DNA of 64,000 nucleotides from Flagellimonas sp. (GTDB lineage Bacteria; Bacteroidota; Bacteroidia; Flavobacteriales; Flavobacteriaceae), in assembly GCF_965215805.1 (NCBI RefSeq), contig NZ_OZ244124.1, positions 2,358,417-2,422,416 of the forward strand, written 5' to 3'. The position numbers and the translations under genes are program-made. This document shows positions 17,485-59,436 of the stretch, piece after piece (positions within the stretch are counted from its first letter, which is position 1; each line of letters starts with the position of its first letter). The notes beneath the pieces were generated by a model. It was not told the origin of the DNA and made no database searches. It was given only the letters and a program-made list of their open reading frames with translations.

Positions 17485-18729
17485 TTAATTGCTGATTGTT
17501 CTGGAATTTACAGAGCCTATTCCTATGATGCTGTCGTGCATGTCACCAAAATCCCGATAATAGACCAAAATGAGGTAATTGTTTTCCGTGAAATGAAAGT
17601 TGCCTCCCACATAGTTAAGGTCCACAACTCCATCCTCCCGTTCCACCACATATTTATAATTGTAAAATCCTTGCTTTATGGGTAGGGTTAGTTCCATTTT
17701 TCCATTATCGGAGTTGAAGGTCATCAAATTTTCCTCTTCCAAGGCATAGTTGTTGAACTTCCCGAAGACGTAGACCTTGTCCAAACCAATGTCATTGGAG
17801 TAGGGTAGGCTAAAATGGACTTTGGAGTATTCCGCCTCCCTGGAAACATCATCACCCTGAAGCGTGCGGATCACAAAATCCCCATTGATATCCGGGAAAT
17901 AGGTGTACGGCAGATCATGCCTGAATTCGTTGGTGAAAAGATAATGGTGGTACAGATCTTTAAATTCTACCTTGGAAATAGCAAAAGTGGGAGATCGTAA
18001 ATCTTTGGTGTCAAAATTCAAAAATTCGTTGCCCCCATAAAAACTTGTTTCCTGGTCGTATTTATAAACCAACTCAGTTCCCAGGGTAAATTGTGGTTGA
18101 ATATTGTAAATCGCCGTGGGCCAAAAATGATTTTGGATTATGGCAACCTTGACCTCCTTTTTGGGATTGACAACTGGGAATCCAGCGGTGTTGATACGAA
18201 ACTGAACTACTTGTTTGGTATTCAAAAACTGGAAATCCCGGGAACGTTTTATGGTGCCCCCAACCCTAACTAAATCCTTGTAAACCAGAAACCTGCGGGA
18301 AAATTGGAGTTCCCCGTACATATTGTAAATCTCAAGAAGGTAGTTGCCACTTACTTTGAGCCCAACGTTTTGGTTGGGTATGGTAAGTCTATAATTGGAA
18401 TAGGGTTGTAGGGTGTTATAACTGTTCTCGTAATCAATAATGCGTTGGTTGTCGGTTCCGTTGAGGTATTGCGATTTTAGCAATTGCGAAGGTGTCCAGT
18501 CGTAATCACAGTGTACGATCTTGTAGTAGTAATCTTGTTCGCTGGCTGTGAGGTCGTCAAACTCCAATGTCATTTTTTCACCAAGCTGAATAACAGGGAA
18601 TTGATCCTCCGTTGGGCCTATAAAGACAACCGATTTTATGTGGGAGGGTGGATTTACTTCTTCTTGCACCTGTGCAAAAACTCCGGTAACAAAAAAACAA
18701 CAGCACAATTGTTTAATCAATAAGCGCAT
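17485..18729 (-). CDS. DUF5103 protein (T9SS plug-like)
   Basis: LEFDDL, YYKIVHCDYDW, KVSGNYLL, GGNEFLNFDTK, KQGFYNY, TENNY; start refined to ATG 18729 (signal peptide MRLLIKQ...VFAQ). Confidence 0.8.
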   Translation of the reverse strand: MRLLIKQLCCCFFVTGVFAQVQEEVNPPSHIKSVVFIGPTEDQFPVIQLGEKMTLEFDDLTASEQDYYYKIVHCDYDWTPSQLLKSQYLNGTDNQRIIDYENSYNTLQPYSNYRLTIPNQNVGLKVSGNYLLEIYNMYGELQFSRRFLVYKDLVRVGGTIKRSRDFQFLNTKQVVQFRINTAGFPVVNPKKEVKVAIIQNHFWPTAIYNIQPQFTLGTELVYKYDQETSFYGGNEFLNFDTKDLRSPTFAISKVEFKDLYHHYLFTNEFRHDLPYTYFPDINGDFVIRTLQGDDVSREAEYSKVHFSLPYSNDIGLDKVYVFGKFNNYALEEENLMTFNSDNGKMELTLPIKQGFYNYKYVVEREDGVVDLNYVGGNFHFTENNYLILVYYRDFGDMHDSIIGIGSVNSRTISN

Positions 18730-18774
18730 ATTAGGCCCAAATTTTGGGTAAAGGTAAACAAAAAGTGTGCCTAG

Positions 18775-18846
18775 CAAATTTAGCTCGATGTAATCCCATT
18801 TTTATGGTCAATTATTATGAAAACTATCCTTTTAATGCTAAATTTG
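18775..18846. promoter_or_regulatory. Back-to-back -7 elements (TAAATTTG) for the DUF5103 gene (minus, 18775-18782) and nqrA (plus, 18839-18846)
   Basis: Two exact TAnnTTTG in opposite orientation, each inside GCTAAATTTGC. Confidence 0.6.
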
Positions 18847-30291: not shown

Positions 30292-30318
30292 TGTAACATT
30301 TGATTCCATATAGAGTCT
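30292..30318 (+). promoter_or_regulatory. Putative ECF-sigma promoter TGTAAC-N16-AGTCT
   Basis: Same motif and spacing recurs at 45313-45339. Confidence 0.5.
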
Positions 30319-32740: not shown

Positions 32741-33916
32741 TTATTGGGAAATGTAGAGATACCCCTGGTATTTCTCTTTATTATCGGTTACGGTAAGGAC
32801 ATAGAAATAAACCCCTGCAGAAAGTCCTGAAGCTTTGCTAATTACTCCATTCCGATTTGATTTGCCGTCAAATTCGTTGGCGTAGTTTAGTTTGGAATAC
32901 ACCAACACACCGTAACGGTTATAGATGTTAAGGACATTGTTGGGAACATTTTCAATACCATCAATCAAAAGAAAATCGTTTACCCCATCATCATTTGGGG
33001 TCATAAAGTAATTGTCAAGTTCTAGAACCGTAAACGGTTCCAAAAGGTCATCTGTTCCACCTAGCGTAATGATTTCGTAATCGTTGGGTACAAAAGTCTC
33101 TGAAGAGATACTTCCTGTTTGCATATTACCGGACACGGTAGTATTGCCCAATCGTTCCCATTGGTTGGATGTTTTGTTCCATCCCACGACCAACAAACTT
33201 TCAACCGTTTCGGCCAAAAGTTCCACGGCACTATTGGTATCCCAGGTAAGGGTCACTACCGAAGGTTGATTACCTTCCAATCGCCAAAATTCCAGCGTAC
33301 TGACCTGGAGGTCTTCAGTGGCTTTACTATCTGTTGGGAATTGTTGGGACAATGATGCTGAATTATTGGGGTCTTCGGGATAATAAGCACATTTGGCCAA
33401 AGTGTTGGCTGTACCTGATGATAGGGTCAAATATCGAAAAAACTCCCCGTCCCCAACTGGAAAAGTTATGGTTTCCTTATTTGCTGCCCCTGCGTAACCA
33501 TTGATATGTGCCATATTACCAGATCCCATATAAAAGGAATCGTCTATAAAATTCAGATAGCTTGCAGAGTTGGATTTGGAGGTTAAAACATCTCCTACCA
33601 CAAAATTGACATTTCCTGTTACCCCTAGCCAGGTCTCCAGCAGCAACCCATTGTCAGCAACAATTTCTATGTCCTGGAAAATAGGGTTACTTGAGCCCGA
33701 AACGGTCAACAGGTTTCCGCTATAAAACCCTGTAAGCCCTATGTTATTATCAAAAGCGCCATCGTTGATTACATCCAAATGAAAACCGACCGATGAGGTA
33801 CCGTGAAACTGAATATTGCCAAAATTATGAAAGGCCGTCTGTCCCCAAAAAAGGGTTGGAACTACCATTAGGGAGCTTAAAAGTAATCGTTTTATATATT
33901 GTCTTATGATGATCAT
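32741..33916 (-). CDS. T9SS type-B CTD (gliding-motility-associated CTD) protein, partner paralog 2
   Basis: Signal peptide; C-terminal FMTPNDDGVND...IYNRYG...GVYFY...QGYLYI; clearly paralogous to 40237-41403. Confidence 0.88.
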   Translation of the reverse strand: MIIIRQYIKRLLLSSLMVVPTLFWGQTAFHNFGNIQFHGTSSVGFHLDVINDGAFDNNIGLTGFYSGNLLTVSGSSNPIFQDIEIVADNGLLLETWLGVTGNVNFVVGDVLTSKSNSASYLNFIDDSFYMGSGNMAHINGYAGAANKETITFPVGDGEFFRYLTLSSGTANTLAKCAYYPEDPNNSASLSQQFPTDSKATEDLQVSTLEFWRLEGNQPSVVTLTWDTNSAVELLAETVESLLVVGWNKTSNQWERLGNTTVSGNMQTGSISSETFVPNDYEIITLGGTDDLLEPFTVLELDNYFMTPNDDGVNDFLLIDGIENVPNNVLNIYNRYGVLVYSKLNYANEFDGKSNRNGVISKASGLSAGVYFYVLTVTDNKEKYQGYLYISQ

Positions 33917-33919
33917 GGA

Positions 33920-34570
33920 TTATCTAAATGCTTGAAATATGACAACGATTCCGTCAGCAAAACTGTCTGTGTTTAGGGTGAATCCGTCCGTGTTAAAACT
34001 TGTTACGGTGGCTGATGTAATTCCCAGGTTATTTCCGTTTTGATCACTGTAACGCAGTGCTATTGAGTGGGAATTGGAAGCATATCTTGAGATGTCGTTT
34101 ATGGAATTCCCGCTTCCGCCAACATAAATGACCTGTTCAGCAATGGTCCCACCGTCATTTCTGGCAAATCCGTTCATGGAACCATAGGCATTGGCAAGGG
34201 TCCGGTTATTGTTTCCAACTCCGTTGTCGGAATTTAGGTTAAAGCTTTCCACATTCGCATGGGCAGAAAAAGTTAGGCTGGTAGGCTGGAAGGGTATTCC
34301 CGTTATGGTTTGGTTACCCGCTCCCGTAATTTGAAAAGCACCCACATAGCTATTGGCCACATTCGGAACTTCCACCCAGGCGGAATTGCTATAAAAATGC
34401 ATACTACTCGTTGTGGTATTATAGACCATGGAACCTTCTTCTGGATTGGAAATACTGTTCATCTCCAAAGTGGTGACATTATGGATGGCTACCAGGTCCC
34501 CAGCGGTTGGCGTTTGAGCACTTAGACCCAAAAGGAAGAATAACAATATGGTGGTAAAAATGCCTTTCAT
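33920..34570 (-). CDS. Secreted 216-aa protein: fibre-type N-terminal module plus tip-like beta domain, no stalk
   Basis: Signal peptide; VTTLEMNSISNPEEGSMVYNTTTSSMHFY..SAW resembles the N-domain of the two neighbouring repeat proteins. Confidence 0.8.
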   Translation of the reverse strand: MKGIFTTILLFFLLGLSAQTPTAGDLVAIHNVTTLEMNSISNPEEGSMVYNTTTSSMHFYSNSAWVEVPNVANSYVGAFQITGAGNQTITGIPFQPTSLTFSAHANVESFNLNSDNGVGNNNRTLANAYGSMNGFARNDGGTIAEQVIYVGGSGNSINDISRYASNSHSIALRYSDQNGNNLGITSATVTSFNTDGFTLNTDSFADGIVVIFQAFR

Positions 34571-34580
34571 TGTTCTTCTT

Positions 34581-37500
34581 TTACAGATCTAGAATGGTAA
34601 ACATAAATTCTGAATTGAATCTATTTCTATCTGTACCCCCGTTGTCATTATCCCCTACAATTACTTCGAAGCTGGAACTGGTCTGTGCACGATAAGAAAT
34701 TCCAGGGTCGTCATTTCCGGAACCATCCCGACTCGGCTGTGCCAATTGAATAATATAGTTGGCGTCGCTTACCAGTCCAGAAGGTAGGTTGACCCTGTAA
34801 TATCCATTTCCTGTGAGTTTGGTAACTGTAATTCCCGATGTGGCCCTCGTAACACTTCCGTTTGCAGCTATTTTGCCGAAAGCTTTTATAGGACTCTCGT
34901 AATATGCGCCACCATTGGCTCCCACAGTAATGCTATTGTCAGCCTCAGCGCCAACAACATTGGCTGTTTGGTTCGCTGTAGCTTCGTTGGTATATGTTAT
35001 AACACCAGTTGTTGTGTTTTGGGAAAGGGTGGTAACGGTGTCATCGTCTCCATCTGCTATATCTGCTGGGATATTGGAAAGTGATGACCAATCTCCGTCA
35101 AAATCATCGGTCACATCGGTGTCCAGGTTGGGGAACTCGTTGTTCACTGCCGTTGCCACCTGTGCATCGGTCAGCTGTGTATCGTTGTCTATGTTGTCGG
35201 CAAAGCCCGCGGGAACGTTGTTCAAAGAGGCCCACTCCCCGTCAAAGTCGTCCGTTGAGTCAGTGTCGAGGTTCGCGGGCACGTCCGTAAGGTCGTTGAA
35301 ACTTCCACTGAAATCATCGGTGGAATCCGTATCCAGATTGGCAGGTACGTTGGTCAAATCGTTGAAATCCCCTGAAAAGTCATCGGTCACATCGGTATCC
35401 AGGTTGGGGAACTCGTTGTTCACTGCCGTTGCCACCTGTGCATCGGTCAGCTGTGTGTCGTTGTCGATGTCGTCGGCAAAGCCCGAGGGAACGTTGTTCA
35501 AAGAGGCCCACTCCCCGTCAAAGTCGTCGGTTGAGTCCGTGTCCAGATTGGCGGGCACATCCGTAAGATCGTTGAAGCTGCCTGAAAAGTCGTCGGTCAC
35601 ATCGGTATCGAGGTTGGGGAACTCGTTGTTCACCGCCGTTGCCACCTGTGCATCGGTCAGCTGTGTATCGTTGTCGATGTCGTCGGCAAAGCCTGAGGGC
35701 ACATTGTTGAGGGAGGACCACTCCCCGTCAAAGTCGTCGGTAGAGTCAGTGTCGAGGTTCGCGGGCACGTCCGTAAGGTCGTTGAAACTTCCACTGAAAT
35801 CATCCGTTGAGTCCGTATCAAGATTGACGGGTACATTGGTCAGATCATTGAAATCCCCTGAAAAGTCGTCGGTCACATCGGTGTCCAGGTTGGGGAACTC
35901 GTTGTTCACTGCCGTTGCCACCTGTGCATCGGTCAGCTGCGTATCGTTGTCTATGTCGTCGGCAAATCCTGCTGGCACATTGTTCAAAGAGGACCATTCC
36001 CCGTCAAAGTCGTCCGTTGAGTCCGTGTCCAGATTGGCCGGTACATTGGTCAAATCATTGAAATCCCCTGAAAAGTCGTCGGTCACATCGGTATCGAGAT
36101 TGGGGAACTCGTTGTTCACTGCCGTTGCCACCTGCGCATCGGTCAGCTGTGTATCGTTGTCGATGTCGTCGGCAAAGCCTGCGGGCACGTTGTTCAGGGA
36201 GCTCCATTCCCCGTCAAAGTCGTCGGTTGAATCCGTGTCCAGATTGACAGGTACATTGGTCAGATCATTGAAATCCCCTGAAAAGTCATCGGTCACATCG
36301 GTATCGAGATTGGGGAACTCGTTGTTCACTGCGGTCGCTACCTGTGCATCGGTCAGCTGGGTATCGTTGTCGATGTCGTCGGCAAACCCCGCTGGCACGT
36401 TGTTGAGCGAGGTCCACTCCCCGTCAAAGTCGTCCGTTGAGTCCGTATCAAGATTTGCCGGTACATTGGTCAAATCGTTGAAATCCCCTGAAAAGTCATC
36501 CGTCACATCGGTGTCCAGGTTGGGGAACTCGTTGTTCACTGCCGTTGCCACCTGTGAATCTGTCAGCTGTGTATCGTTGTCGATGTCGTCGGCAAATCCT
36601 GCTGGCACATTGTTCAAAGAGGCCCACTCCCCGTCAAAGTCGTCGGTGGAGTCCGTGTCCAGATTGGCCGGAACGTCCGTAAGGTCGTTGAAGCTGCCTG
36701 AAAAGTCATCGGTCACATCGGTGTCCAGGTTGGGGAACTCGTTGTTCACTGCCGTTGCCACCTGTGAATCTGTCAGCTGTGTATCGTTGTCTATGTCGTC
36801 GGCAAATCCTGCTGGCACGTTGTTCAGGGAGGACCATTCCCCGTCGAAATCGTCCGTTGAGTCCGTATCAAGGTTGGCGGGCACATCGGTAAGGTCGTTG
36901 AAGCTACCGCTGAAATCATCCGTTGAGTCCGTATCAAGATTGACGGGCACGTCCGTAAGGTCGTTGAAGCTACCTGAAAAGTCATCGGTCACATCGGTGT
37001 CCAGGTTGGGGAACTCGTTGTTGACCGCCGTTGCCACCTGTGCATCGGTGAGCTGTGTATCGTTGTCGATGTCATCGGCGAAGCCTGCGGGCACGTTGTT
37101 CAGGGAGCTCCACTCCCCGTCAAAATCGTCAGTGGAGTCCGTATCGAGGTTCGCGGGCACGTCGGTAAGGTCGTTGAAGCTTCCACTGAAATCATCGGTG
37201 GAATCCATATCCAGATTGGCAGGTACATTGGTCAGATCATTGAAATCCCCTGAAAAGTCATCGGTCACATCGGTGTCCAAGTTCGGGAACTCGTTGTTCA
37301 CTGCGGTAGCCACCTGTGCATCGGTCAGCTGTGTATCGTTGTCTATGTCGTCGGCAAATCCTGCTGGCACATTGTTCAAAGAGGCCCACTCCCCGTCAAA
37401 GTCGTCCGTGGAGTCCGTGTCCAGGTTTGCGGGCACATCCGTCAGGTCATTAAAGCTGCCTGAAAAGTCATCGGTCACGTCGGTATCGAGGTTGGGGAAC

Positions 37501-40076
37501 TCGTTGTTGACGGCCGTTGCCACCTGTGCATCTGTCAGCTGTGTATCGTTGTCGATGTCGTCGGCAAATCCTGCTGGCACATTGTTCAAAGAGGCCCACT
37601 CCCCGTCAAAGTCGTCGGTGGAGTCCGTATCGAGGTTGGCCGGTACATTGATCAAATCATTGAAATCCCCTGAAAAGTCGTCGGTTGAGTCCGTATCGAG
37701 GTTCGCGGGCACATCTGTAAGGTCGTTGAAGCTTCCACTGAAATCGTCCGTTGAGTCCGTATCAAGATTGACGGGTACATTTGTCAAATCATTGAAATCC
37801 CCTGAAAAGTCATCCGTCACATCGGTGTCCAGGTTGGGGAACTCGTTGTTCACTGCCGTTGCCACCTGTGCATCTGTCAGCTGTGTATCGTTGTCGATGT
37901 CGTCGGCAAATCCTGCTGGCACATTGTTCAAAGAGGCCCACTCCCCGTCAAAGTCGTCGGTGGAGTCCGTGTCCAGATTGGCCGGAACGTCCGTAAGGTC
38001 GTTGAAGCTGCCTGAAAAGTCATCGGTCACATCGGTGTCCAGGTTGGGGAACTCGTTGTTCACTGCCGTTGCCACCTGTGAATCTGTCAGCTGTGTATCG
38101 TTGTCGATGTCGTCGGCAAATCCTGCTGGCACATTGTTCAAAGAGGCCCACTCCCCGTCAAAGTCGTCGGTGGAGTCCGTGTCCAGATTGGCCGGAACGT
38201 CCGTAAGGTCGTTGAAGCTGCCTGAAAAGTCATCGGTCACATCGGTGTCCAGGTTGGGGAACTCGTTGTTCACTGCCGTTGCCACCTGTGAATCTGTCAG
38301 CTGTGTATCGTTGTCTATGTCGTCGGCAAATCCTGCTGGCACATTGTTCAAAGAGGACCACTCCCCGTCGAAATCGTCCGTTGAGTCGGTATCGAGATTG
38401 GCCGGTACATTGGTCAAATCATTGAAATCCCCTGAAAAGTCGTCCGTCACATCGGTGTCCAGGTTGGGGAACTCGTTGTTCACTGCCGTTGCCACCTGTG
38501 CATCGGTCAGCTGCGTATCGTTGTCTATGTCATCGGCAAATCCTGCTGGCACATTGTTGAGTGAGGCCCACTCCCCGTCGAAGTCGTCCGTGGAGTCCGT
38601 ATCCAGATTGACGGGTACATTGGTCAAATCATTGAAATCCCCTGAAAAGTCATCGGTCACATCGGTATCGAGGTTCGGGAACTCGTTGTTCACTGCCGTT
38701 GCCACCTGTACATCTGTCAGCTGTGTATCGTTGTCGATGTCATCTGCAAATCCTGCTGGCACATTGTTGAGGGAGGACCATTCCCCGTCAAAGTCGTCGG
38801 TTGAGTCCGTATCAAGATTGGCGGGCACGTCGGTAAGGTCGTTGAAGCTTCCACTGAAATCATCAGTGGAATCCGTATCCAGATTGGCAGGTACATTGGT
38901 CAAATCATTGAAATCCCCTGAAAAGTCATCGGTCACATCGGTATCGAGGTTCGGGAACTCGTTGTTCACTGCCGTTGCCACCTGTGCATCTGTCAGCTGT
39001 GTATCGTTGTCGATGTCATCTGCAAATCCTGCTGGCACATTGTTGAGGGAGGACCATTCCCCGTCGAAGTCGTCCGTGGAGTCCGTGTCCAGGTTGGGGA
39101 ACTCGTTGTTAACGGCGGTTGCCACCTGTGCATCGGTCAGCTGCGTATCGTTGTCGATGTCGTCGGCAAAGCCTGCGGGCACATTGTTGAGGGAGGACCA
39201 CTCCCCGTCAAAGTCGTCGGTAGAGTCAGTGTCGAGGTTCGCGGGCACGTCCGTAAGGTCGTTGAAACTTCCACTGAAATCATCCGTTGAGTCCGTATCC
39301 AAATTAGCGGGCACATCCGTAAGGTCGTTGAAGCTTCCACTGAAATCGTCTGTTGAATCCGTATCAAGGTTGGCCGGTACATTGGTCAAATCATTGAAAT
39401 CCCCTGAAAAGTCATCGGTCACATCGGTATCATAACCACTAAGGTCAATAGTGGTGGCATCAGGATCGTTGGTTAATGAAATTACACCAGCATTAAATTG
39501 CAAATCTTGGATTTCATTTTGACTGTCTGCGTCAGCATCATCAACATTGATGGCTATGGTGTTTCCGTTATCAATGCTAATATTTCCTGGATTTCCATCG
39601 GTATTAAGGTTTTGGCTATCTGTATTTGTTGTATTGATGACCGTTTGTGTCCCGGATTCGTTGGTAAATGTGTATGTGCCATCCAAGTTGTCAACTAAGG
39701 TAGTAATGGTTTCAGGCGCTCCGTTGAACGTTAGGTCATTTCCAAGGCCATCTGAGAGCGTAATGGTTCCATCTCCGTTGTCAACAAAAGAAAAACCTGT
39801 GGTATTGGATGAGTTGCAAAGGTTTATCCACTGCCCTCCATTGAAATAATGCACGCAGGAGGTATCAATGTTATAAATTACAGCACCGTTAAGCGGAGTA
39901 ATGCTTTGCATTTGGGCCGAAGTCAACCTGGTAAGTACCAGAGCCTTGTCGCTGCTCTCCAGTTCCATGATGGATGCTGGGTTTATGGCATTGGGATTAT
40001 CTCCCACCTTGACTTGGCCGAATGCGATGATAGAAAAAAATAGGGCAAAAAAGGGTAAACTTCTTCTCAATTCCAT
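34581..40076 (-). CDS. Giant Asp-rich repeat protein (1831 aa), putative fibrillar adhesin
   Basis: Sec signal (…IIAFG/Q), N-domain QVKVGDNP...ELESSDK..LTRLT...GAVIYNID..CVHYFNG.QW, 1436-aa repeat stalk, ~170-aa unique C-terminus, no CTD. Confidence 0.9.
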   Translation of the reverse strand: MELRRSLPFFALFFSIIAFGQVKVGDNPNAINPASIMELESSDKALVLTRLTSAQMQSITPLNGAVIYNIDTSCVHYFNGGQWINLCNSSNTTGFSFVDNGDGTITLSDGLGNDLTFNGAPETITTLVDNLDGTYTFTNESGTQTVINTTNTDSQNLNTDGNPGNISIDNGNTIAINVDDADADSQNEIQDLQFNAGVISLTNDPDATTIDLSGYDTDVTDDFSGDFNDLTNVPANLDTDSTDDFSGSFNDLTDVPANLDTDSTDDFSGSFNDLTDVPANLDTDSTDDFDGEWSSLNNVPAGFADDIDNDTQLTDAQVATAVNNEFPNLDTDSTDDFDGEWSSLNNVPAGFADDIDNDTQLTDAQVATAVNNEFPNLDTDVTDDFSGDFNDLTNVPANLDTDSTDDFSGSFNDLTDVPANLDTDSTDDFDGEWSSLNNVPAGFADDIDNDTQLTDVQVATAVNNEFPNLDTDVTDDFSGDFNDLTNVPVNLDTDSTDDFDGEWASLNNVPAGFADDIDNDTQLTDAQVATAVNNEFPNLDTDVTDDFSGDFNDLTNVPANLDTDSTDDFDGEWSSLNNVPAGFADDIDNDTQLTDSQVATAVNNEFPNLDTDVTDDFSGSFNDLTDVPANLDTDSTDDFDGEWASLNNVPAGFADDIDNDTQLTDSQVATAVNNEFPNLDTDVTDDFSGSFNDLTDVPANLDTDSTDDFDGEWASLNNVPAGFADDIDNDTQLTDAQVATAVNNEFPNLDTDVTDDFSGDFNDLTNVPVNLDTDSTDDFSGSFNDLTDVPANLDTDSTDDFSGDFNDLINVPANLDTDSTDDFDGEWASLNNVPAGFADDIDNDTQLTDAQVATAVNNEFPNLDTDVTDDFSGSFNDLTDVPANLDTDSTDDFDGEWASLNNVPAGFADDIDNDTQLTDAQVATAVNNEFPNLDTDVTDDFSGDFNDLTNVPANLDMDSTDDFSGSFNDLTDVPANLDTDSTDDFDGEWSSLNNVPAGFADDIDNDTQLTDAQVATAVNNEFPNLDTDVTDDFSGSFNDLTDVPVNLDTDSTDDFSGSFNDLTDVPANLDTDSTDDFDGEWSSLNNVPAGFADDIDNDTQLTDSQVATAVNNEFPNLDTDVTDDFSGSFNDLTDVPANLDTDSTDDFDGEWASLNNVPAGFADDIDNDTQLTDSQVATAVNNEFPNLDTDVTDDFSGDFNDLTNVPANLDTDSTDDFDGEWTSLNNVPAGFADDIDNDTQLTDAQVATAVNNEFPNLDTDVTDDFSGDFNDLTNVPVNLDTDSTDDFDGEWSSLNNVPAGFADDIDNDTQLTDAQVATAVNNEFPNLDTDVTDDFSGDFNDLTNVPANLDTDSTDDFDGEWSSLNNVPAGFADDIDNDTQLTDAQVATAVNNEFPNLDTDVTDDFSGDFNDLTNVPVNLDTDSTDDFSGSFNDLTDVPANLDTDSTDDFDGEWSSLNNVPSGFADDIDNDTQLTDAQVATAVNNEFPNLDTDVTDDFSGSFNDLTDVPANLDTDSTDDFDGEWASLNNVPSGFADDIDNDTQLTDAQVATAVNNEFPNLDTDVTDDFSGDFNDLTNVPANLDTDSTDDFSGSFNDLTDVPANLDTDSTDDFDGEWASLNNVPAGFADNIDNDTQLTDAQVATAVNNEFPNLDTDVTDDFDGDWSSLSNIPADIADGDDDTVTTLSQNTTTGVITYTNEATANQTANVVGAEADNSITVGANGGAYYESPIKAFGKIAANGSVTRATSGITVTKLTGNGYYRVNLPSGLVSDANYIIQLAQPSRDGSGNDDPGISYRAQTSSSFEVIVGDNDNGGTDRNRFNSEFMFTILDL
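35100..39407 (-). repeat. Intragenic combinatorial tandem array: 18 x 144-nt unit plus 26 x 66-nt units
   Basis: Hand parse: 18x48 aa + 26x22 aa = 1436 aa = 4308 nt, exactly matching the coordinates. Confidence 0.92.
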
Positions 40077-40236
40077 TACAACTTGTTTGATAGCGCGCTA
40101 AAAATAAGGTTGGCGGTAGAGAAGAACCACAAAATGTTGTGTAGGTGGATAAGATTGTTGTAAATGGGAATTGAATGGACAATCCCTTAAAATATAGCTT
40201 GTTAGGCTAGGTAATGTGAAGTATAATTCTTACAGG

Positions 40237-41403
40237 TTAACGATCCAGAAACAAAAAGCCTTGATATTCCAAACCTAAATCATCCAAGGTGACCAGATAG
40301 AAGTAAACACCTTCGGGAAGCCCAATATCCTGGCTTAGATAAAAATTTCCAGTATTTGATTCTCCTATGAATTCGTCTACGTAGTTGATTTTTTCATACA
40401 CCTTCTGTCCAAACCGATTGAAAATTCTAAGGCTATTGTTTGGCGATTCAGACATATTGTCCAGCACAAGAAATTCGTTAATGCCATCCCCATTTGGACT
40501 TAGGAAGTAATTGCCCAAAGTAGGATTGTTCACGGCGAATGTATCTGTAGGTAATGGAATGGTCCCGAAGGTAATGGCTCTAAAATCGTTAGGATTAAAG
40601 ACTTCGGAGGTGATGAAACCGTTTGTAATATCACCGCCTTTAGCTGAATTTCCGATGACAACCCATCGATTTGAGGCTATACTCCAGCCCACCACAATAA
40701 TGGACTCAAAACTGGCATTGGGAATAGATGCTAAATCGCTTCTCGGATTCCAACTAATGGTTACCGATGCGGGGACGCCACTTTGGAGAATCCAAAACTC
40801 CTGGTCCGTCACTGTTCCAATTTCCGGTACTTTGCTGTTTACATCAAAGGTGGATGTAAGAGATGTTGGACTGGAGGGGTTTTCAAACAAATAAGCACAC
40901 CGTGCCAAAGGCGTACTACCTTGTGAATTCAGGGTCAGTGGCCGTAATTGATTTTCATCACCAATCGGAAATGAGAAAAAATCCCTGTTATTTATGGCAG
41001 CAAAGCCCTTTATTTTTGCACCATCCCGTTCCCCGGTAAAAAAACCATTTTGCATAAAATTGAGATACACCGTTTGATCATCCAAGGGCGAGTCCACATT
41101 ACCGTCCACAAAATTGGTATTGTTTTGTACATGCACCGGGATTCTTAGCATGACATTACTGGGAACAAAAAACTCCGCATCCCAAAAACTTGGGGCTACA
41201 TTGCCTGAAACCTCAATAGCGCCGTTTCCATAGAAACCAGTCAGCCCAATATTTTGATCAAAGGAAGCATCGTTGATAAAGTTGGTATGAAATCCTATGC
41301 TGCCATTAGGGTGTATCTTGATATCGCCTCCGTTATATAGGGCGTTTTGGGCATAGCCAGAGACTAAAAATAACAGTAAAGATGCTTTAATAAGTACTTT
41401 CAT
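40237..41403 (-). CDS. T9SS type-B CTD protein, partner paralog 1
   Basis: Start refined to ATG 41403 (MKVLIKASLLLFLVSGYAQ); FLSPNGDGINE...IFNRFG...GVYFY...QGFLFL. Confidence 0.88.
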   Translation of the reverse strand: MKVLIKASLLLFLVSGYAQNALYNGGDIKIHPNGSIGFHTNFINDASFDQNIGLTGFYGNGAIEVSGNVAPSFWDAEFFVPSNVMLRIPVHVQNNTNFVDGNVDSPLDDQTVYLNFMQNGFFTGERDGAKIKGFAAINNRDFFSFPIGDENQLRPLTLNSQGSTPLARCAYLFENPSSPTSLTSTFDVNSKVPEIGTVTDQEFWILQSGVPASVTISWNPRSDLASIPNASFESIIVVGWSIASNRWVVIGNSAKGGDITNGFITSEVFNPNDFRAITFGTIPLPTDTFAVNNPTLGNYFLSPNGDGINEFLVLDNMSESPNNSLRIFNRFGQKVYEKINYVDEFIGESNTGNFYLSQDIGLPEGVYFYLVTLDDLGLEYQGFLFLDR

Positions 41404-41408
41404 GTTTT

Positions 41409-43490
41409 CTAAGGAGCTAAAACCACGTAATGCCAATTTGCATTGGTCGCTGTAGGAACTCCAGCTATAAACTCGTAGACCTGTACAGAAAAAGTCCCTA
41501 CACCTTGATTGGTCAATTGAATCATAATTGGATTTCCTGGTGTGTTTTCCTGGACGGTGAGTTGAATAACTGAGGTAGCAGTTATGGCGGCATTATTAAC
41601 GATATAAGCTCCGGCTGTTCCAGTCCCAGATGCAACTTGTGCCCTTAAGGTTACTTGCTGACTAAGAACCCAATCAGTTCCATTCCACTCCATAAGTTGA
41701 CCTTGTGTGGTTCCGTTGTCAAGTTTTGCCAAAGTGACAGCATCATTTGCTATGGATGTGGCATTGGGGGCTCCCGTGACATCCCCAGAAAGATTATCCA
41801 CAGAGAATGTGGTCCCCGTAAGTGTGAGCCCCGTCCCTGCGGTATATGTTGTGTCGTCATCGGTATCGTCCGCGAAGCCCGCCGGGATGTTGGTGATGTT
41901 GGCCCAATCGGGTGCGACGCCCGCATTGTCCACGGAGAAAGTTGTCCCCGTAAGTGAGAGCCCTGTCCCTGCGGTATATGTTGTGTCGTCATCGGTATCG
42001 TCCGCGAAGCCCGCCGGGATGTTCGTGATGTTGGCCCAATCGGGTGCGACGCCCGCATTGTCCACGGAGAAAGTTGTCCCTGTAAGTGAGAGCCCCGTCC
42101 CTGCAGTGTACGTTGTGTCGTCGTCGGTATCGTCCGCGAAGCCCGCCGGGATGTTCGTGATGTTGGCCCAATCGGGTGCAATGCCCGCATTGTCCACGGA
42201 GAAAGTTGTCCCTGTAAGAGAGAGCCCCGTCCCTGCAGTGTACGTTGTGTCGTCGTCGGTATCGTCCGCGAAGCCTGCCGGGATGTTGGTGATGTTGGCC
42301 CAATCGGGTGCAATGCCCGCATTGTCCACGGAGAAAGTTGTCCCTGTAAGTGAGAGCCCTGTCCCTGCAGTGTACGTTGTGTCGTCGTCGGTATCGTCCG
42401 CGAAGCCTGCCGGGATGTTGGTGATGTTGGCCCAATCGGGTGCAATGCCCGCATTGTCCACGGAGAAAGTTGTCCCTGTAAGTGAGAGCCCTGTCCCTGC
42501 GGTATATGTTGTGTCGTCATCGGTATCGTCCGCGAAGCCTGTCGGGATGTTCGTGATGTTGGCCCAATCAGGTGAAATTCCTGAATTGTCAACTTCAAGT
42601 GACCCGTCCGCGGCTTGGTTTAACCCTGTTCCAGCAACATCCACATTTATCTTGGCCGCTGTCACGCCGTCGTCCAGCAGTTCATTCGTCCCAACCGCAT
42701 CATTGGCCATTTTATCATTGGTAACCGCATCGGTGGCCAAATCCAAATTGCTTACTTGGCCATCTTCAATCTTTAATGAGTTGACGGCATTATCGGCAAG
42801 CTCTACAGTGTTGATTCCTCCCGCATTAACGTCCAGCAAAAATGGGTTTAAGGCATCCCCTGTTCCAGACAGCACCAAGGTGGCATCAGCTGGTCCTGTA
42901 ACTTCATTTCCAACCACACCGTCCACTTCGGTAACGGTTAAGGCCGACTCATCCACCAAAATCCATTGTGTTCCGCTCCATTGCAACAACTCGCCTGTGG
43001 TAGTTCCAGGACCCAGCTTATCAAAAGAAATGGCTTCTGCTGCAATCCTATCTCCAGTAATGGATTGTGGTTGAATATGAAGTTGCCCATTTACAGAGGT
43101 TGGAACAATATTCTCGCCTCTAATCATGCCTACTTCAAAATTGAAATTGGTACCATCTTCCGTGATTACAATGGTAGGGTTTGCATTTACAATGGGGTCC
43201 GCGGAAAAGGTCTGCTCATCTGGCTGGTCACAGGGATTGATCCACTGGGTACCGTCGAAGAAATGCACGCACTCGGTATCCACGTTGTAGACCATGGCAC
43301 CTTGCAATGGGGTTATGCTTTCCATTTGGACCGTTGTCATACGGGTAATGACCAAGACCCTGGAGGTGCTTTCCAATTCCAGAACGGACGCCGGATGCAA
43401 AACTTCAGGGTTTTCCCCAATTTTGATTTGGGCTTGTAGCGAACTGATCATCAGTAGTCCAATGATCAAACTTGAAAATTGTTTTTTCAC
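41409..43490 (-). CDS. Repeat-stalk secreted protein (~693 aa), putative fibrillar adhesin
   Basis: GTG 43490 (VKKQFSSLIIGLLMISSLQA/Q) preferred because TAGTTTTG -7 at 43527-43534 overlaps the track start; same N-domain as the 1831-aa protein; 6x44-aa repeats; no CTD. Confidence 0.88.
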   Translation of the reverse strand: MKKQFSSLIIGLLMISSLQAQIKIGENPEVLHPASVLELESTSRVLVITRMTTVQMESITPLQGAMVYNVDTECVHFFDGTQWINPCDQPDEQTFSADPIVNANPTIVITEDGTNFNFEVGMIRGENIVPTSVNGQLHIQPQSITGDRIAAEAISFDKLGPGTTTGELLQWSGTQWILVDESALTVTEVDGVVGNEVTGPADATLVLSGTGDALNPFLLDVNAGGINTVELADNAVNSLKIEDGQVSNLDLATDAVTNDKMANDAVGTNELLDDGVTAAKINVDVAGTGLNQAADGSLEVDNSGISPDWANITNIPTGFADDTDDDTTYTAGTGLSLTGTTFSVDNAGIAPDWANITNIPAGFADDTDDDTTYTAGTGLSLTGTTFSVDNAGIAPDWANITNIPAGFADDTDDDTTYTAGTGLSLTGTTFSVDNAGIAPDWANITNIPAGFADDTDDDTTYTAGTGLSLTGTTFSVDNAGVAPDWANITNIPAGFADDTDDDTTYTAGTGLSLTGTTFSVDNAGVAPDWANITNIPAGFADDTDDDTTYTAGTGLTLTGTTFSVDNLSGDVTGAPNATSIANDAVTLAKLDNGTTQGQLMEWNGTDWVLSQQVTLRAQVASGTGTAGAYIVNNAAITATSVIQLTVQENTPGNPIMIQLTNQGVGTFSVQVYEFIAGVPTATNANWHYVVLAP
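41793..42569 (-). repeat. Six 132-nt tandem repeats (DWANITNIPAGFADDTDDDTTYTAGTGLSLTGTTFSVDNAGIAP)
   Basis: Unit starts at 42569, 42437, 42305, 42173, 42041, 41909. Confidence 0.95.
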
Positions 43491-43526
43491 GGTGTCTGAG
43501 GGTTGAGGATATTTAGACTTAATGGG

Positions 43527-43534
43527 CAAAACTA
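43527..43534 (-). promoter_or_regulatory. -7 element TAGTTTTG for the fibre operon
   Basis: Exact TAnnTTTG 36 nt upstream of GTG 43490. Confidence 0.55.
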
Positions 43535-43692: not shown

Positions 43693-44445
43693 ATGGCCAT
43701 GCTTATGAAAAACTTTACACTGATTTTATTTTTTCTTGCTTGCGCTGGTAGTTTACTGGCTCAAGATAATAGACAAGTACTAAGGGGCAAGGTGATTTAT
43801 CGTGGGATAAATGTACCCAACGAAAACGTGATCAATTCCACTTCGGAAACAGCTACTATTACCAATGAGGATGGGGAGTTTGTAATATTGGTAAAGGAGG
43901 GTGACCAATTGGTTTTTACAGCAGTGAATTATCAACTGGAAGTTGTAACGATCACTCCTGAAATTTTACACAATAATCGTCTCGTAGTTGAGGTGACGGA
44001 AAAAGTTACCGAGCTGGAAGGGGTAGTGGTAACTCCTGAAAATCAGGAGAAATTTTTGGAAGTCAAAAACGAGGATTTCAAAGAATTTGAATATGAAATA
44101 GACCGATCTACCGAGGTTGAGAATATTGCCGAATCCAGAACCGTAAGAGGAATGCGGGATGGAATCAACTTTGTGAACATTTTCAAAGCTTTGTTCAAGG
44201 CCAAAAAACTTGAGGGTGAAACAAGGGAGCCGTTAAAGGTAAGCGAGGTTTTGAGACAGGTCTATGAAGACGAGTTTTTTGTGGTGGATTTGAAATTACC
44301 TCAGGATAAAATCGATGCTTTTTTGGTCTACTGTGATGACAAAGTTCCCTCGCAGACCTTGTTGCGCAAAGAAAATGAGTTCCAGCTAATCGATTTCCTA
44401 GTGACCCATAGTAAAACCTATTTGGCCGAATTGGATGCGGAGTAA
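43693..44445 (+). CDS. Secreted protein with carboxypeptidase-regulatory-like (CarbopepD_reg_2) N-domain
   Basis: Signal peptide; LRGKVI...TITNEDGEFVILVKEGDQLVFTAVNY...ELEGVVV. Confidence 0.75.
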   Translation: MAMLMKNFTLILFFLACAGSLLAQDNRQVLRGKVIYRGINVPNENVINSTSETATITNEDGEFVILVKEGDQLVFTAVNYQLEVVTITPEILHNNRLVVEVTEKVTELEGVVVTPENQEKFLEVKNEDFKEFEYEIDRSTEVENIAESRTVRGMRDGINFVNIFKALFKAKKLEGETREPLKVSEVLRQVYEDEFFVVDLKLPQDKIDAFLVYCDDKVPSQTLLRKENEFQLIDFLVTHSKTYLAELDAE

Positions 44446-45232
44446 AGTTCTACTTTTCCTTTTTGTTGTTTTTTCATTTTCGATACATGCCCAGCAAACG
44501 GGTACCAAACAGCTTCGAGGAAGGGTGTACAGCACCAATGAGGATGTTGTAGGGGTGGTGGTGCAGAACCTTACATCCCAAAGAGCTGTTATTACGGATA
44601 TGGACGGGAATTTTTCCATTCTTGTGGCCCTTCAGGATACGCTGGCATTCTCCGCGGTCCAATTTCAGCGAAAACTTATTGTGGTCAATGATGTGGTCTA
44701 CAATACAAGTTTTATCTCGGTACCCTTGGAGGAATTTGTGAACGAGCTGAAGGAAGTTGTGGTGAGACCTTACGATTTATCCGGAGACCTTAACCAGGAT
44801 TTAGATCAGCTCCAACTGGAAAAAGATGTAAGTGCGGAAGCTTTGGGACTGCCCAATGCGCACGCAAAAATCCCCACGCAGAGCGAACGGAAATTGCAGC
44901 AGGCTTCTTTTGGAAAATTTAATGTGGGAATGATTTTGACTCCTCCCTTGGATCCAATCATCAATGCCATTACGGGGCGAACAAAGATGCTTAAGAACAG
45001 GGTCAAAGTGGATAAAACCTATGCCAGAACCCAGCGGGTACAGGGTTTTTATGCAGATTCCCTAATTAGCACCAACTTAAAGATTCCTGTAGAAAAACTG
45101 GATGATTTCATGTATTTCTGTGAGGTGGATGAGGATTTTCAGCACACCGTAGACTCCCATGATAAATTGAAGATTTGGGATTTTATGGTTTCAAAGAGTA
45201 GAGCGTATCGTAGAAACAATAATTTAGACTAA
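44435..45232 (+). CDS. Paralogous carboxypeptidase-regulatory-like domain protein
   Basis: Signal peptide; LRGRVY...ITDMDGNFSILVALQDTLAFSAVQF...NELKEVVV; overlaps the previous gene. Confidence 0.75.
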   Translation: MRSKVLLFLFVVFSFSIHAQQTGTKQLRGRVYSTNEDVVGVVVQNLTSQRAVITDMDGNFSILVALQDTLAFSAVQFQRKLIVVNDVVYNTSFISVPLEEFVNELKEVVVRPYDLSGDLNQDLDQLQLEKDVSAEALGLPNAHAKIPTQSERKLQQASFGKFNVGMILTPPLDPIINAITGRTKMLKNRVKVDKTYARTQRVQGFYADSLISTNLKIPVEKLDDFMYFCEVDEDFQHTVDSHDKLKIWDFMVSKSRAYRRNNNLD

Positions 45233-45312
45233 AGGGTTGGCATGCCATTTGTACTTTTGTTAATTGAATACGAGGTTTGGGAAGGTTTTTTATTTCTAAG
45301 TCCTCAATTCCT

Positions 45313-45339
45313 TGTAACGAAAAGTTGAAAATGTAGTCT
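45313..45339 (+). promoter_or_regulatory. Putative ECF-sigma promoter TGTAAC-N16-AGTCT
   Basis: Identical elements and spacing to 30292-30318; 8 nt before ATG 45348. Confidence 0.5.
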
Positions 45340-45347
45340 TTTACATT

Positions 45348-45866
45348 ATGATAAAGCTTAAAAAAATAGGAAGTGTATTAGGTTTGTTAGCCCTTTTATT
45401 ATTGTTTTCCTTTACCACGATGCACAAATTCTACCTTAGTGTGACCAATGTGGTATACTCTGAAAAAAGTGCATCGTTCCAAATAACCAGTCGGATCTTT
45501 ATTGATGACCTGGACGATGTTCTGGAAGAACGATACGGGGTCAAGGCAGAACTGGCAACAAAAAATGAGGCTCCCGTAGCGGATGCCTATATTGAAAAAT
45601 ACCTCCGTGCAAAATTTGCCATAGCGCTAAATGGCGAAATCGTCCCCTACACTTTTTTGGGAAAAGAATATGACAATGATGTCGTAATCTGCTACATGGA
45701 GTTGGAAGATGTGGACTTTTCCAGCTTAAAATCAGTCTCCATTCAGAATGAAGTTCTTACCGATCTTTTTGAAGAACAGCAAAATGTGGTCCATGTAAAA
45801 TGGAAAGGAACGAAAAAAAGTTTTGTGTTGATCAAGGAGAATAATAAAGGAATGTTAAACTTATAA
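45348..45866 (+). CDS. DUF6702-like exported protein
   Basis: HKFYLSVT...RIFIDDL...LGKEY...LTDLFEEQQNVVHV; typical neighbour of M1 peptidases. Confidence 0.7.
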   Translation: MIKLKKIGSVLGLLALLLLFSFTTMHKFYLSVTNVVYSEKSASFQITSRIFIDDLDDVLEERYGVKAELATKNEAPVADAYIEKYLRAKFAIALNGEIVPYTFLGKEYDNDVVICYMELEDVDFSSLKSVSIQNEVLTDLFEEQQNVVHVKWKGTKKSFVLIKENNKGMLNL

Positions 45867-56266: not shown

Positions 56267-58237
56267 TTATTTTGATTTTGCCAAATAGTTATTGTTGAGT
56301 TGAACCACCGGAAATTCGGTTCTTCGGTTCAATTCCAGTTGTTCTTGATCACAGTCTTCCAAACCGTTACAATCGTTGATCAATTTTCGTTTTCCAAATC
56401 CTTTATAAGAGATAATTCGGTGTCTTGGTATACCGTGGGCAATGAGATACTCGTAGGTGGATTTAGCCCTTCGTTCTGATAGTTTGTCATTGTAATTGTG
56501 GCTTCCCACGGGATCGGTATGCGATTCCAATCGGATAACCATTTCAGGGTAGGTTTCCGACATAAGCTTGACCACTTTATCCAATTCACGGGCTGCATCA
56601 GGTCTAATATTACTTTTATTAAAGTCAAAATAGATTTTATTGAGTCCTGCCAAAACCTTCACATCCATTACAGGTTCCAGTTCAATATTCTGAACTACTG
56701 TTTTGGTAACGCGCTGTACCGTTTGCGTGCTAAAATACACGTGCTTATGGGGGTGCGTTTTCCGAACCGCTTCTATCAGGTAATTTTGACCACGATTCAC
56801 AAACATTTCATAACGCCCTTGATCATTGGTCATCGTTTTTTGAACCAACTCCCCAGTATTTTGATCGTACAAAGAGATGGCAACACTGTCCAACGGCTGA
56901 AGGTTGATAGCATCCGTGACTGTTCCCTCCAGCATCAAAGAAGGAATAAACTTAAAACGATAAATATCATCGCTTCCTTTGCCTCCTTTACGGTTGGAGC
57001 TTACATATCCATCCACACCGTTATCCATGGCGTAGTATCCAAAATCGTCTTTTTCACTATTTAGGGGCTTTCCTAAATTGATCACATCCTTTATGTTTCC
57101 TTCCTCGTCCGAAATAGCAGCAAAGACATCCAATTGTCCAAAGCCTACATGTCCATCGGAAGAGAAGAACAACTGCCCTTCATTATTGATGTACGGAAAC
57201 ATTTCGTTCCCAGGGGTATTGATTATGGGGCCAGCGTTTACTGGGAGTCCCACACCACCCCTTGGGTGTATTTTACAGTAATAAATGTCGGTACCCCCAT
57301 AGCCACCGGGTCTGTCGGAAGCAAAGTACAATAGCGTTCTATCAGTGTTTACGGTAGGGTGACCGGTAGAGTAGTGGTCGGCATTGGTCTTAAGGTTTCG
57401 GGTAACCTTCCAGACACCATCCACTTTTTCCCCTTTGTAGATTTTTAGGTTGTTTAGTTTTTCTATGTTCTTGTCTTCCTTTTTCTTGGTGAAAAAGCTT
57501 TCTTTATTTTGGAAGTAGCTGTTTCGCGTAAAGTAGACAATGGTATCGTTTTTGTAATCGGTGGAAAAAACCAAGGAACTTTCGTGGAACTTGGAGTTGA
57601 TTTCGCCTTGAAACTTTCTGGGAACATCCATGGTACTTCCTTCGGTAACATGGAAAATATCCAACCAGGATTCGTTGTTCCATCCGTAAATATCTTCTGA
57701 AGCGACCTCTTTTCTACTGGAGCTGAAATACAACTGCCCGTCATGGACAAAGGCGCCAAATTCGCTGTATCGCGTATTAAAATGTACTGGCTCCACTTCG
57801 TATCTTTCCCTACTGTTGAAGACCACAGAAGCCAGGTTTCCATCCTTTAAAAACTGTTTGACACGTGCATCGTTTTTATGGAATTTTCTATAGCGTTTAA
57901 GCCATTTTACAGCCTCTTTCTCCTGACCGGAGCTTTTAAGCGCCATGGCATACTTAAAGTAATAGTTGGTCGGGGTCTCGGGCTCGTTGATAAACCTTTT
58001 GAAATAGGGCAAAGCCTTTTCAAAATCCCGAAGCATCAAATAACATTCGGCCAACCGCTGATAGGCATGTACAGCGTTTTTCCCAGTGACCATTTTTTCG
58101 TACTCGGGAATGGCCTTTGCGTAAGCAAATTTATAGAACAATTGGTCCGCTCTCTTTTGGACTGTGGATTGTGCGGTCATGGAAACCACTCCAAAAAAGG
58201 CAATGAATAAAACTGATATGAGGTTGTGGCGCTTCAT
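56267..58237 (-). CDS. PorE-like OmpA-family protein (TPR - PD40 beta-propeller - carboxypeptidase-regulatory - OmpA_C)
   Basis: ADQLFYKFAYAKA TPR; YFASDRPGGYGGTDIY, FSSDGHVGFGQLD; IYFDFNKS, ESHTD, LSERRA, NRRTEF; signal peptide lacks a lipobox Cys. Confidence 0.92.
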   Translation of the reverse strand: MKRHNLISVLFIAFFGVVSMTAQSTVQKRADQLFYKFAYAKAIPEYEKMVTGKNAVHAYQRLAECYLMLRDFEKALPYFKRFINEPETPTNYYFKYAMALKSSGQEKEAVKWLKRYRKFHKNDARVKQFLKDGNLASVVFNSRERYEVEPVHFNTRYSEFGAFVHDGQLYFSSSRKEVASEDIYGWNNESWLDIFHVTEGSTMDVPRKFQGEINSKFHESSLVFSTDYKNDTIVYFTRNSYFQNKESFFTKKKEDKNIEKLNNLKIYKGEKVDGVWKVTRNLKTNADHYSTGHPTVNTDRTLLYFASDRPGGYGGTDIYYCKIHPRGGVGLPVNAGPIINTPGNEMFPYINNEGQLFFSSDGHVGFGQLDVFAAISDEEGNIKDVINLGKPLNSEKDDFGYYAMDNGVDGYVSSNRKGGKGSDDIYRFKFIPSLMLEGTVTDAINLQPLDSVAISLYDQNTGELVQKTMTNDQGRYEMFVNRGQNYLIEAVRKTHPHKHVYFSTQTVQRVTKTVVQNIELEPVMDVKVLAGLNKIYFDFNKSNIRPDAARELDKVVKLMSETYPEMVIRLESHTDPVGSHNYNDKLSERRAKSTYEYLIAHGIPRHRIISYKGFGKRKLINDCNGLEDCDQEQLELNRRTEFPVVQLNNNYLAKSK

Positions 58238-58248
58238 TGGAATTGATT

Positions 58249-59157: not shown

Positions 59158-59386
59158 ATTGTTTCGGTTAAGGTTTTGCCCGGTTGCCCAGACTGGAATT
59201 TGGGTTTAAATTCTATATCAAAGCAACGGCAAATGGGTGTTATTGAGTAATATAGCCGTTGAATGAACTTGAATAATCGGCCTGAAACAAAGGGTTCGAT
59301 GAAGTGCATTTTTCTGTGGACGAATGCGGCAAATGACCTGATTTACAAAAGGGCTTTGGTCTAAGAAATAGTTCGATTATCGATAC

Positions 59387-59417
59387 AAAAAAAGGCCAGC
59401 CTGTGTGGCTGACCTTT
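59387..59417 (-). terminator. Intrinsic terminator after the giant T9SS cargo
   Basis: Minus strand AAAGGTCAGCC-acaca-GGCTGGCCTTTTTTT (one G-U pair). Confidence 0.75.
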
Positions 59418-59436
59418 CAAAGTAGTTGCAGTTTGT

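Follow-up and report, generated by a model that had tools for sequence, protein, structure and literature searches.

We analyzed a stretch of 64,000 nucleotides (nt) from Flagellimonas sp. (RefSeq assembly GCF_965215805.1, contig NZ_OZ244124.1, positions 2,358,417 to 2,422,416 of the forward strand), which is called the window here. Five genes lie head to tail on its minus strand between positions 32741 and 43490 (Table 1). Three of them encode proteins that resemble phage tail fibres (fibre A, fibre B and a short fibre). The other two encode smaller partner proteins ending in a C-terminal domain (CTD) of type B, the kind of domain that a type IX secretion system (T9SS) recognizes. The order is fibre A, partner 1, fibre B, short fibre and partner 2, and the intergenic gaps in this order are 5, 160, 10 and 3 nt. 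A first-pass annotation, made from the DNA letters, had given this order together with the fibre sizes and the gaps, all of which are borne out by the coordinates of the open reading frames (ORFs). The translations of fibres and partners, judged by eye, begin with putative Sec signals, that is, a hydrophobic core followed by A/G-Q. The whole genome is a single 4.22-Mb contig. It contains no partners other than these two, and the conserved N-terminal module of the fibres (the N-module) is found in these three proteins only.

Table 1. Genes of the fibre cluster and the features within them. Positions are those of the window; protein lengths are in amino acids (aa).
Feature	Position	Strand	Description
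Fibre A	41409..43490	-	ORF, 693 aa from GTG; longest ORF 706 aa; PTL_trimer N-module, six 44-aa repeats, beta-rich tip, no CTD
Fibre A N-module	43227..43427	-	Residues about 22-88; begins right behind the putative signal-peptide cleavage site AQ|I
Fibre A stalk repeat array	41793..42590	-	Tandem Repeats Finder: 6 x 132 nt (6.0 copies, 95% matches), motif DWANITNIPAGFADDTDDDTTYTAGTGLSLTGTTFSV
Partner 1	40237..41403	-	388 aa from ATG; longest ORF 399 aa from TTG; beta-sandwich N-domain of ~270 aa; type-B CTD about 40240-40506
Fibre B	34581..40076	-	ORF, 1831 aa; PTL_trimer N-module about 39813-40016; acidic 22-aa/48-aa repeat stalk; beta-rich tip of ~150 aa; no CTD
Fibre B stalk repeat region	35100..39431	-	66-nt and 144-nt units combined into 210/276/342/486-nt super-repeats
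Short fibre	33920..34570	-	216 aa; second half of N-module about 34367-34498; conserved beta-sandwich tip
Partner 2	32741..33916	-	391 aa; N-domain 33032-33838; type-B CTD about 32750-33019

Over 68 residues, the N-modules of fibres A and B share 59% identity. The module had been described as common to all three fibres. This is correct for fibres A and B, which have it in full, but the short fibre retains only the second half. For both fibre A and the short fibre, proteins with 100% identity carry precomputed matches to the family PF26696 (PTL_trimer). Fibre B was assigned to the same family through the module identity and a match to a local PTLN hidden Markov model (HMM) at E 2e-26, the value that the module of fibre A also reaches. 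We found no paper that mentions PF26696.

None of the three fibres matches the type-A or type-B CTD families (PF18962, PF13585, TIGR04183 and TIGR04131), and none matches a YadA-type C-terminal beta-barrel anchor or an autotransporter family. PF13585 and PF18962 are absent from all 89 homologues of fibre A as well, and a single weak CTD match was seen among 28 distant PTL relatives. The fibre C-termini are soluble beta-sandwich tips, as seen in the AlphaFold2 (AF2) monomer model of the short fibre, which has a predicted local distance difference test score (pLDDT) of 83. These Pfam and NCBIfam searches agree with the initial description of fibres that lack a CTD or autotransporter barrel and partners that carry a type-B CTD. 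Matches of fibre B to HAMP_2, SopE_N and Annexin and of fibre A to aminotransferases were rejected as artefacts of the acidic repeats, with 0 matched stretches.

The likeness to phage tail fibres, also proposed at first reading, holds up in several searches. A match at E 3e-7 links the fibre A stalk to phrog_892, a family of tail fibres. Similarity of the fibre modules to Mtd_N is weak and below the family threshold (E 0.009-0.03), and that of the N-module profile to DUF2793 is weak too. The model of the short fibre matched many uncharacterized Caudovirales proteins in BFVD (E 2e-6 to 1e-4), some of which have an Mtd N-domain. Sequence searches of the PDB gave no match for fibre A, and for the N-module profile only a chance match to the varicella-zoster virus capsid protein Tri1. 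Distant proteins with the PTL module from other genera end in tips of trimeric types (C1q, BclA_C, S74 and YadA head), and the fibres here are presumably trimeric.

The tips of fibres A and B are unrelated by BLAST, in line with the first-pass annotation. That annotation had further suggested that both stalk length and tip can be swapped. Stalk length does vary: homologues of the A type range from 554 to more than 1000 aa in total, and stalks of more than 4000 aa occur. The tips are more constant than was thought. The tip of fibre A is kept in 56 of the 89 A-type homologues, and that of the short fibre, for which we found 505 homologues, is nearly invariant. A loop of the short fibre at about residues 150-165, GGSGNSINDISRYAS, is identical across Flagellimonas, Maribacter, Tenacibaculum, Aquimarina and Cellulophaga and has a pLDDT below 50 in the AF2 model. 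This loop could be a ligand- or metal-binding site.

The two partners, described as paralogues at first reading, are 40% identical. Their C-termini match CHU_C (PF13585) at E 6e-27 for partner 2 and E 6.7e-22 for partner 1. Against TIGR04131, which has a cut-off of 35 bits, partner 2 scores 45.9 and partner 1 falls just below with 32.1. By these domain matches the partner is a predicted T9SS substrate. Partner 2 has 534 homologues with 52-95% identity, nearly all of them 380-395 aa long, whose sole annotation is 'gliding motility-associated C-terminal domain'. The AF2 monomer model of partner 2 (pLDDT 77) consists of stacked beta-sandwiches and the CTD. Residues 20-59 are nearly invariant across genera, yet their pLDDT in this model is below 50. 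Such a combination would be expected for segments that fold upon binding, and this stretch is a candidate binding segment. The N-domain of the partner is found in 690 clusters among 1.84 billion representative proteins. It always stands at the N-terminus, and most of the proteins are ~380-400 aa long.

The pairing of fibre and partner was surveyed in one genome per genus from 201 Flavobacteriaceae genera. The partner gave a strong match in 43 genera, and 42 have the close fibre subfamily. Both are present in 40 genera, the partner only in 3, the fibre only in 2 and neither in 156 (Fisher p = 4e-36). All five one-sided genera are represented by fragmented assemblies or have their matches at contig ends. 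With 40 genera that have both against 5 that have one, the pairing first noticed in the window is real, ancient and strongly non-random. Among the long fibres, 25 of 33 stop no more than about 300 nt before the start of a partner. The other 8 leave 0.7-4 kb, which is enough room for short fibres, as in the window. Two or three tandem modules are common among the genera, and the tandem duplication reported for the window is conserved in many of them. The single partner of the Tenacibaculum locus stands behind a giant fibre, several short fibres and two proteins of unknown kind. No fusion of fibre and partner and no CTD-bearing fibre was found among the 89 homologues and 80 loci. Fibres and partner very probably constitute one system.

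The surroundings of the cluster are conserved as well. Divergent from the fibre genes, the window has genes for two ~250-aa CarbopepD_reg_2 proteins and a DUF6702 protein (43693-45866, plus strand), and this position is kept in Maribacter. There the fibres and partners occupy the same chromosomal site, with the CarbopepD_reg_2 and DUF6702 genes on one flank and the genes for VanY, M48 and iPGM on the opposite one. The Spongiimicrobium contig ends within the cluster and shows the VanY/M48/iPGM flank only. The chromosomal site is shared across genera and the locus is therefore vertically inherited, neither mobile nor phage-borne.

Further observations were made within the window. Plus-strand ORFs at 34915-39435 (1506 aa) and 41707-43074 (455 aa) were rejected as genes; they are antisense by-products of the in-frame fibre repeats. 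A scan for sigma-70 promoters and terminators, which does not cover Bacteroidota promoters, found nothing distinctive in the 160-nt gap. The motif TGTAAC-N16-AGTCT was discarded as an element of the cluster, its copies at 30292 and 45313 flanking the cluster and neither lying upstream of a fibre gene. PF17116 (T9SS plug first domain) was found in a protein encoded at 17485-18777 of the window (minus strand), confirming that the T9SS context is complete and of the gliding type.

In other genomes, PTL-module fibres are directly followed by relatives of the partner that share ~25% identity with it, have a type-B CTD and are 395-440 aa long. On the 3' side of these relatives follow a PorP_SprF gene (E 1e-69 to 1e-86) and then a PorE-like gene with TPR, PD40, CarboxypepD_reg and OmpA domains. 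A search with an alignment of this distant partner subgroup gave at least 511 loci in species-representative genomes. They are found in Gelidibacter, Aequorivita, Formosa, many Flavobacterium, Myroides (several copies per genome), Mesonia, Winogradskyella and Tenacibaculum, and also in a Sphingobacterium metagenome-assembled genome and in Belliella. Locus architecture was counted in the best 80 of these at least 511 loci. PorP adjoins the partner in 59, and PorP is present together with the PorE-like gene in 52. A run of upstream genes on the same strand occurs in 73 of the 80, and the PTL module is detectable there in 45, many of the remaining upstream ORFs being cut at the edge of the locus.

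A third arrangement has a protein of ~650 aa in which only the N-terminal ~130 residues are common to the partner. Seven of eight such proteins carry the type-A CTD Por_Secre_tail. They abut PTL fibres of 426-488 aa in six of the eight loci, which come from several genera, and one further locus also pairs a type-A-CTD protein with a PTL fibre. PTL fibres that lack a CTD thus have a CTD-bearing neighbour with this N-terminal segment in three independent architectures. The distant partners linked to PorP and PorE-like genes and the type-A-CTD variant are new here.

Two other features of these loci were noted. A conserved block of PAS/histidine-kinase and response-regulator-like genes precedes the type-A-CTD gene in seven of eight loci, six of which have the PTL fibre, which suggests that the type-A-CTD variant has a regulatory input of its own. 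A CTD-less protein of ~480-520 aa stands between a giant fibre and the partner at eight loci from several genera. Its mature N-terminus reads CYP.QIVT..FATGG...VLWLTWG, and it matches neither the PTL-module HMM nor the other local HMMs. It may be a further component.

The first-pass annotation had stressed that type-B cargo is normally accompanied by an adjacent PorP/SprF gene. Such a gene is indeed absent from the cluster, the nearest one (58249-59157) lying beside its own cargo, but the absence is no anomaly. Orphan type-B cargo is documented in Flavobacterium johnsoniae, where three such proteins share the unlinked shuttle Fjoh_1677 (PMC12618676), and an orphan PorP-like gene is found in the Flagellimonas genome, too. 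PorP-like proteins, tied to PorE, anchor type-B cargo, and PorE-like proteins are periplasmic and bind peptidoglycan (PMC9143113). Cargo linked to PorE is static, and orphan cargo is able to ride the gliding track (PMC12618676). Since PorP and PorE-like genes are retained in the distantly related modules, the form in the window is a derived, PorP-less one. The missing PorP is a secondary loss.

Of the 11 PorP/SprF genes in the genome, seven or eight adjoin type-B cargo genes and at least one stands alone as an orphan. The orphan PorP-like gene is located outside the window, at genome positions 2093266-2094261 on the plus strand, and its product of 331 aa ends in DCYCPAANN. Only one other PorP-like protein of this genome has a CxC motif. 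It is SprF-like, ends in NCRCMY and is encoded beside a 4579-aa SprB-like cargo. PorP-like proteins that adjoin PorE-like genes end in SPRF[FY], and a C-terminal CxC was seen in 0 of 65 of those beside distant partners. We tried to identify the orphan twin-cysteine gene as the partner's carrier by its phylogenetic profile. This was given up as non-discriminating, the gene being present in 186 of the 201 genera. The protein is available as a carrier, and its distribution neither supports nor refutes this role.

An internal contrast to the PorP-less cluster is provided by a classic type-B cargo trio at 56267-63999 of the window (minus strand). It comprises a giant Calx-beta/HYR protein with CHU_C, which extends past the window and has 2499 aa in the genome, the PorP/SprF gene mentioned above, and a PorE-like gene with TPR, PD40, CarboxypepD_reg and OmpA domains (56267-58237).

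We propose that the locus would be a chromosomal, vertically inherited operon for cell-surface fibres in which the work is split between two kinds of protein. The fibres, which have no T9SS signal, would be exported by Sec and form trimers, each chain with a PTL_trimer N-module, a stalk of repeats that varies in length and a tip of the beta-sandwich type. The partner would leave the cell by the T9SS, be handed to an outer-membrane barrel of the PorP/SprF family and stay anchored there, like other type-B cargo. It would hold the conserved N-module, so that the variable tips face outward. We place about equal weight for and against the central part of this proposal, namely a partner that is exported by the T9SS, is anchored on PorP and docks the N-module as a base or adaptor. 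The binding of partner and N-module, the surface location of the fibres and their trimerization are inferred. The form of the operon that also has genes for a PorP-like barrel and for a PorE-like peptidoglycan tether is the ancestral and more widely distributed one, and it implies static anchoring. The clade of this genome has lost both of these genes, and its partner would have to use an unlinked carrier.

The passage of the fibres across the outer membrane is a separate matter, and the simplest idea is that they are co-exported with the partner. Every T9SS cargo is believed to need a CTD for export. Tentatively, and with the chances rather against it, the T9SS may export a folded, CTD-less trimeric fibre in trans: the fibre would bind the N-terminal segment of the CTD adaptor by its PTL module, pass the SprA translocon with it and be mounted on a barrel of the PorP family. 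Operons with a PorE-like gene would have a static mount. In PorP-less operons like that of the window, the orphan twin-cysteine PorP-like carrier might place the mount on the gliding track.

Several results weigh against a partner dedicated to the fibres. The N-module superfamily is present in 113 of the 201 genera, and only ~60 have any full-length partner-like gene. In genomes sampled across the phylum, the N-module occurs in 83 of 401, with up to 15 copies per genome. At 19 of 20 sampled distant PTL loci, no neighbour is partner-like; the neighbours are housekeeping genes, and the tips are BclA_C, C1q, fibrinogen_C, Lcl_C, YadA head or S74. Homologues of the short fibre occur alone in Cellulophaga and Aquimarina. 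Given these unpaired distant loci and lone short-fibre homologues, the N-module in general needs no adjacent partner. The obligate pairing for which a neighbourhood survey had been suggested does not hold for the PTL superfamily. One partner can be accompanied by one to six fibres of different kinds. Some longer proteins join the partner N-domain to cadherin, FG-GAP or laminin-G domains. Eight longer N-domain proteins were scanned, and a Por_Secre_tail CTD was found in two and a CHU_C CTD in one. The N-domain may accordingly be a general cargo domain and not a dedicated socket for fibres. Conserved adjacency can also stem from co-regulation alone. Finally, Foldseek searches of the PDB were uninformative. 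The partner model gave the Epf adhesin domain as its best match (E 5e-4, TM 0.2), and the short-fibre model had no match below E 1e-3.

Most of these points would suit a different explanation, in which fibres and partner are co-regulated but independent surface proteins that make no contact. The partner would be a small T9SS adhesin or a cap for PorP in its own right, like PG1035, which is proposed to be nothing but such a cap (PMC9143113), and the fibres would take another route that is used throughout PTL_trimer, most members of which have no partner. We regard this as unlikely. Gaps of 3-10 nt and nearly perfect co-occurrence argue against independence, as does the recurrence of the same N-terminal segment next to PTL fibres in the three architectures. 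Moreover, for a CTD-less protein of 1831 aa no other export route is known.

The order of a fibre gene followed by a gene for a small protein mimics the fibre-chaperone pairs of phages, and the fibres themselves are phage-like. The partner could then be an assembly or tip factor similar to Tfa or gp38 of T2/T4, which would bind the C-terminal tip and either chaperone trimerization or act as the distal adhesin. This is improbable. The partner is conserved, with 50-78% identity, whereas the tips within one operon are unrelated and those of distant PTL proteins, at loci without a partner, are diverse. It is the N-module that is the conserved part of the fibres. A PorP-anchored CTD at the distal tip would also tether that tip to the cell.

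We attach equally little probability to fibres that stay in the periplasm as structural proteins inside the envelope, linked from within to a complex of PorP, PorE and partner. A location of this kind would be consistent with the Sec signal as their only export signal, with the periplasmic, peptidoglycan-binding nature of PorE-like proteins and with the VanY and M48 peptidase genes that are conserved neighbours. It fits poorly with stalks of more than 4000 aa and with the lectin- or adhesin-type tips of distant PTL proteins (C1q, fibrinogen_C, YadA head and S74). The fold shared with phage receptor-binding proteins agrees with an outward role, and the characterized analogues, the MAT fibres discussed below, are surface exposed. 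A remnant of prophage or tailocin tail fibres, to which the weak similarity to phage fibre families and the Mtd N-domain might point, is most improbable given the housekeeping neighbours with no other phage genes nearby, the Sec signal peptides seen by eye on all fibres, the chromosomal position conserved across genera and the linkage of fibres to T9SS genes in hundreds of loci.

A partner that serves as base or carrier would mean that T9SS substrates could be recruited in trans, and would explain many 'hypothetical' tail-fibre-like proteins of marine and soil Flavobacteriia. Should export in trans prove true, these loci would define a class of modular two-polypeptide T9SS adhesins across Flavobacteriia. 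The system would offer a natural scaffold in which stalk length and tip are exchangeable. Its recurrence in hundreds of Bacteroidota loci points to an undescribed mode of mounting fibres on the cell surface, and direct testing is possible in genetically tractable flavobacteria.

The architecture can be compared with four known kinds of system. Phage fibres and receptor-binding proteins of the Mtd_N-like and DUF2793-like types share with the fibres here a conserved N-terminal attachment region, a variable tip and the repeat motif W-x-N-I-x-N-I-P-x-G-F, and the PHROG and BFVD matches point in the same direction. Unlike phage fibres, the proteins described here have putative Sec signals and a conserved chromosomal locus with no virion genes nearby. 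In the type V fimbriae of Porphyromonas gingivalis, Mfa5 is a T9SS-dependent, CTD-bearing accessory protein that joins a fibre of CTD-less subunits. Type V pilins are lipoproteins that are polymerized by strand exchange, and these pilin features were not seen in the fibres here.

Operons for type-B cargo, PorP (SprF) and PorE, such as SprB-SprF, Fjoh_3952-3951-3950 and PG1035-PorP-PorE, resemble the present loci in the type-B CTD of the partner and, for the distant relatives, in the PorP_SprF gene and the TPR/PD40/CarboxypepD_reg/OmpA gene that follow it. The partners in the window, which have no adjacent PorP, are in the same situation as the F. johnsoniae orphan cargo served by Fjoh_1677 (PMC12618676). 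The difference is that in those systems the CTD is on the adhesin itself, whereas here long CTD-less fibres are accompanied by a small conserved CTD protein with no obvious adhesin part. The T9SS papers that we consulted contain no discussion of the upstream CTD-less genes.

A parallel in architecture is offered by the MAT (mosaic adhesive trimer) fibres of Bdellovibrio bacteriovorus. Behind a signal peptide they have a conserved N-domain, for which binding to an unidentified surface element has been proposed, and their tips vary, some of them with an S74 chaperone (PMC10769870). Both are cellular, non-virion proteins that resemble phage tail fibres, trimeric in MAT and presumably so here, with a beta-rich N-terminal domain, a stalk and diverse tips. 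MAT fibres belong to another phylum that lacks the T9SS, and their N-domain has ~130 aa, compared with ~70 aa here. No dedicated partner gene has been described for them, whereas a candidate for the surface element is encoded next door to the fibres in the window. If the partner acts as base or carrier, it would provide a concrete candidate for what the conserved N-domain of the Bdellovibrio MAT fibres binds.

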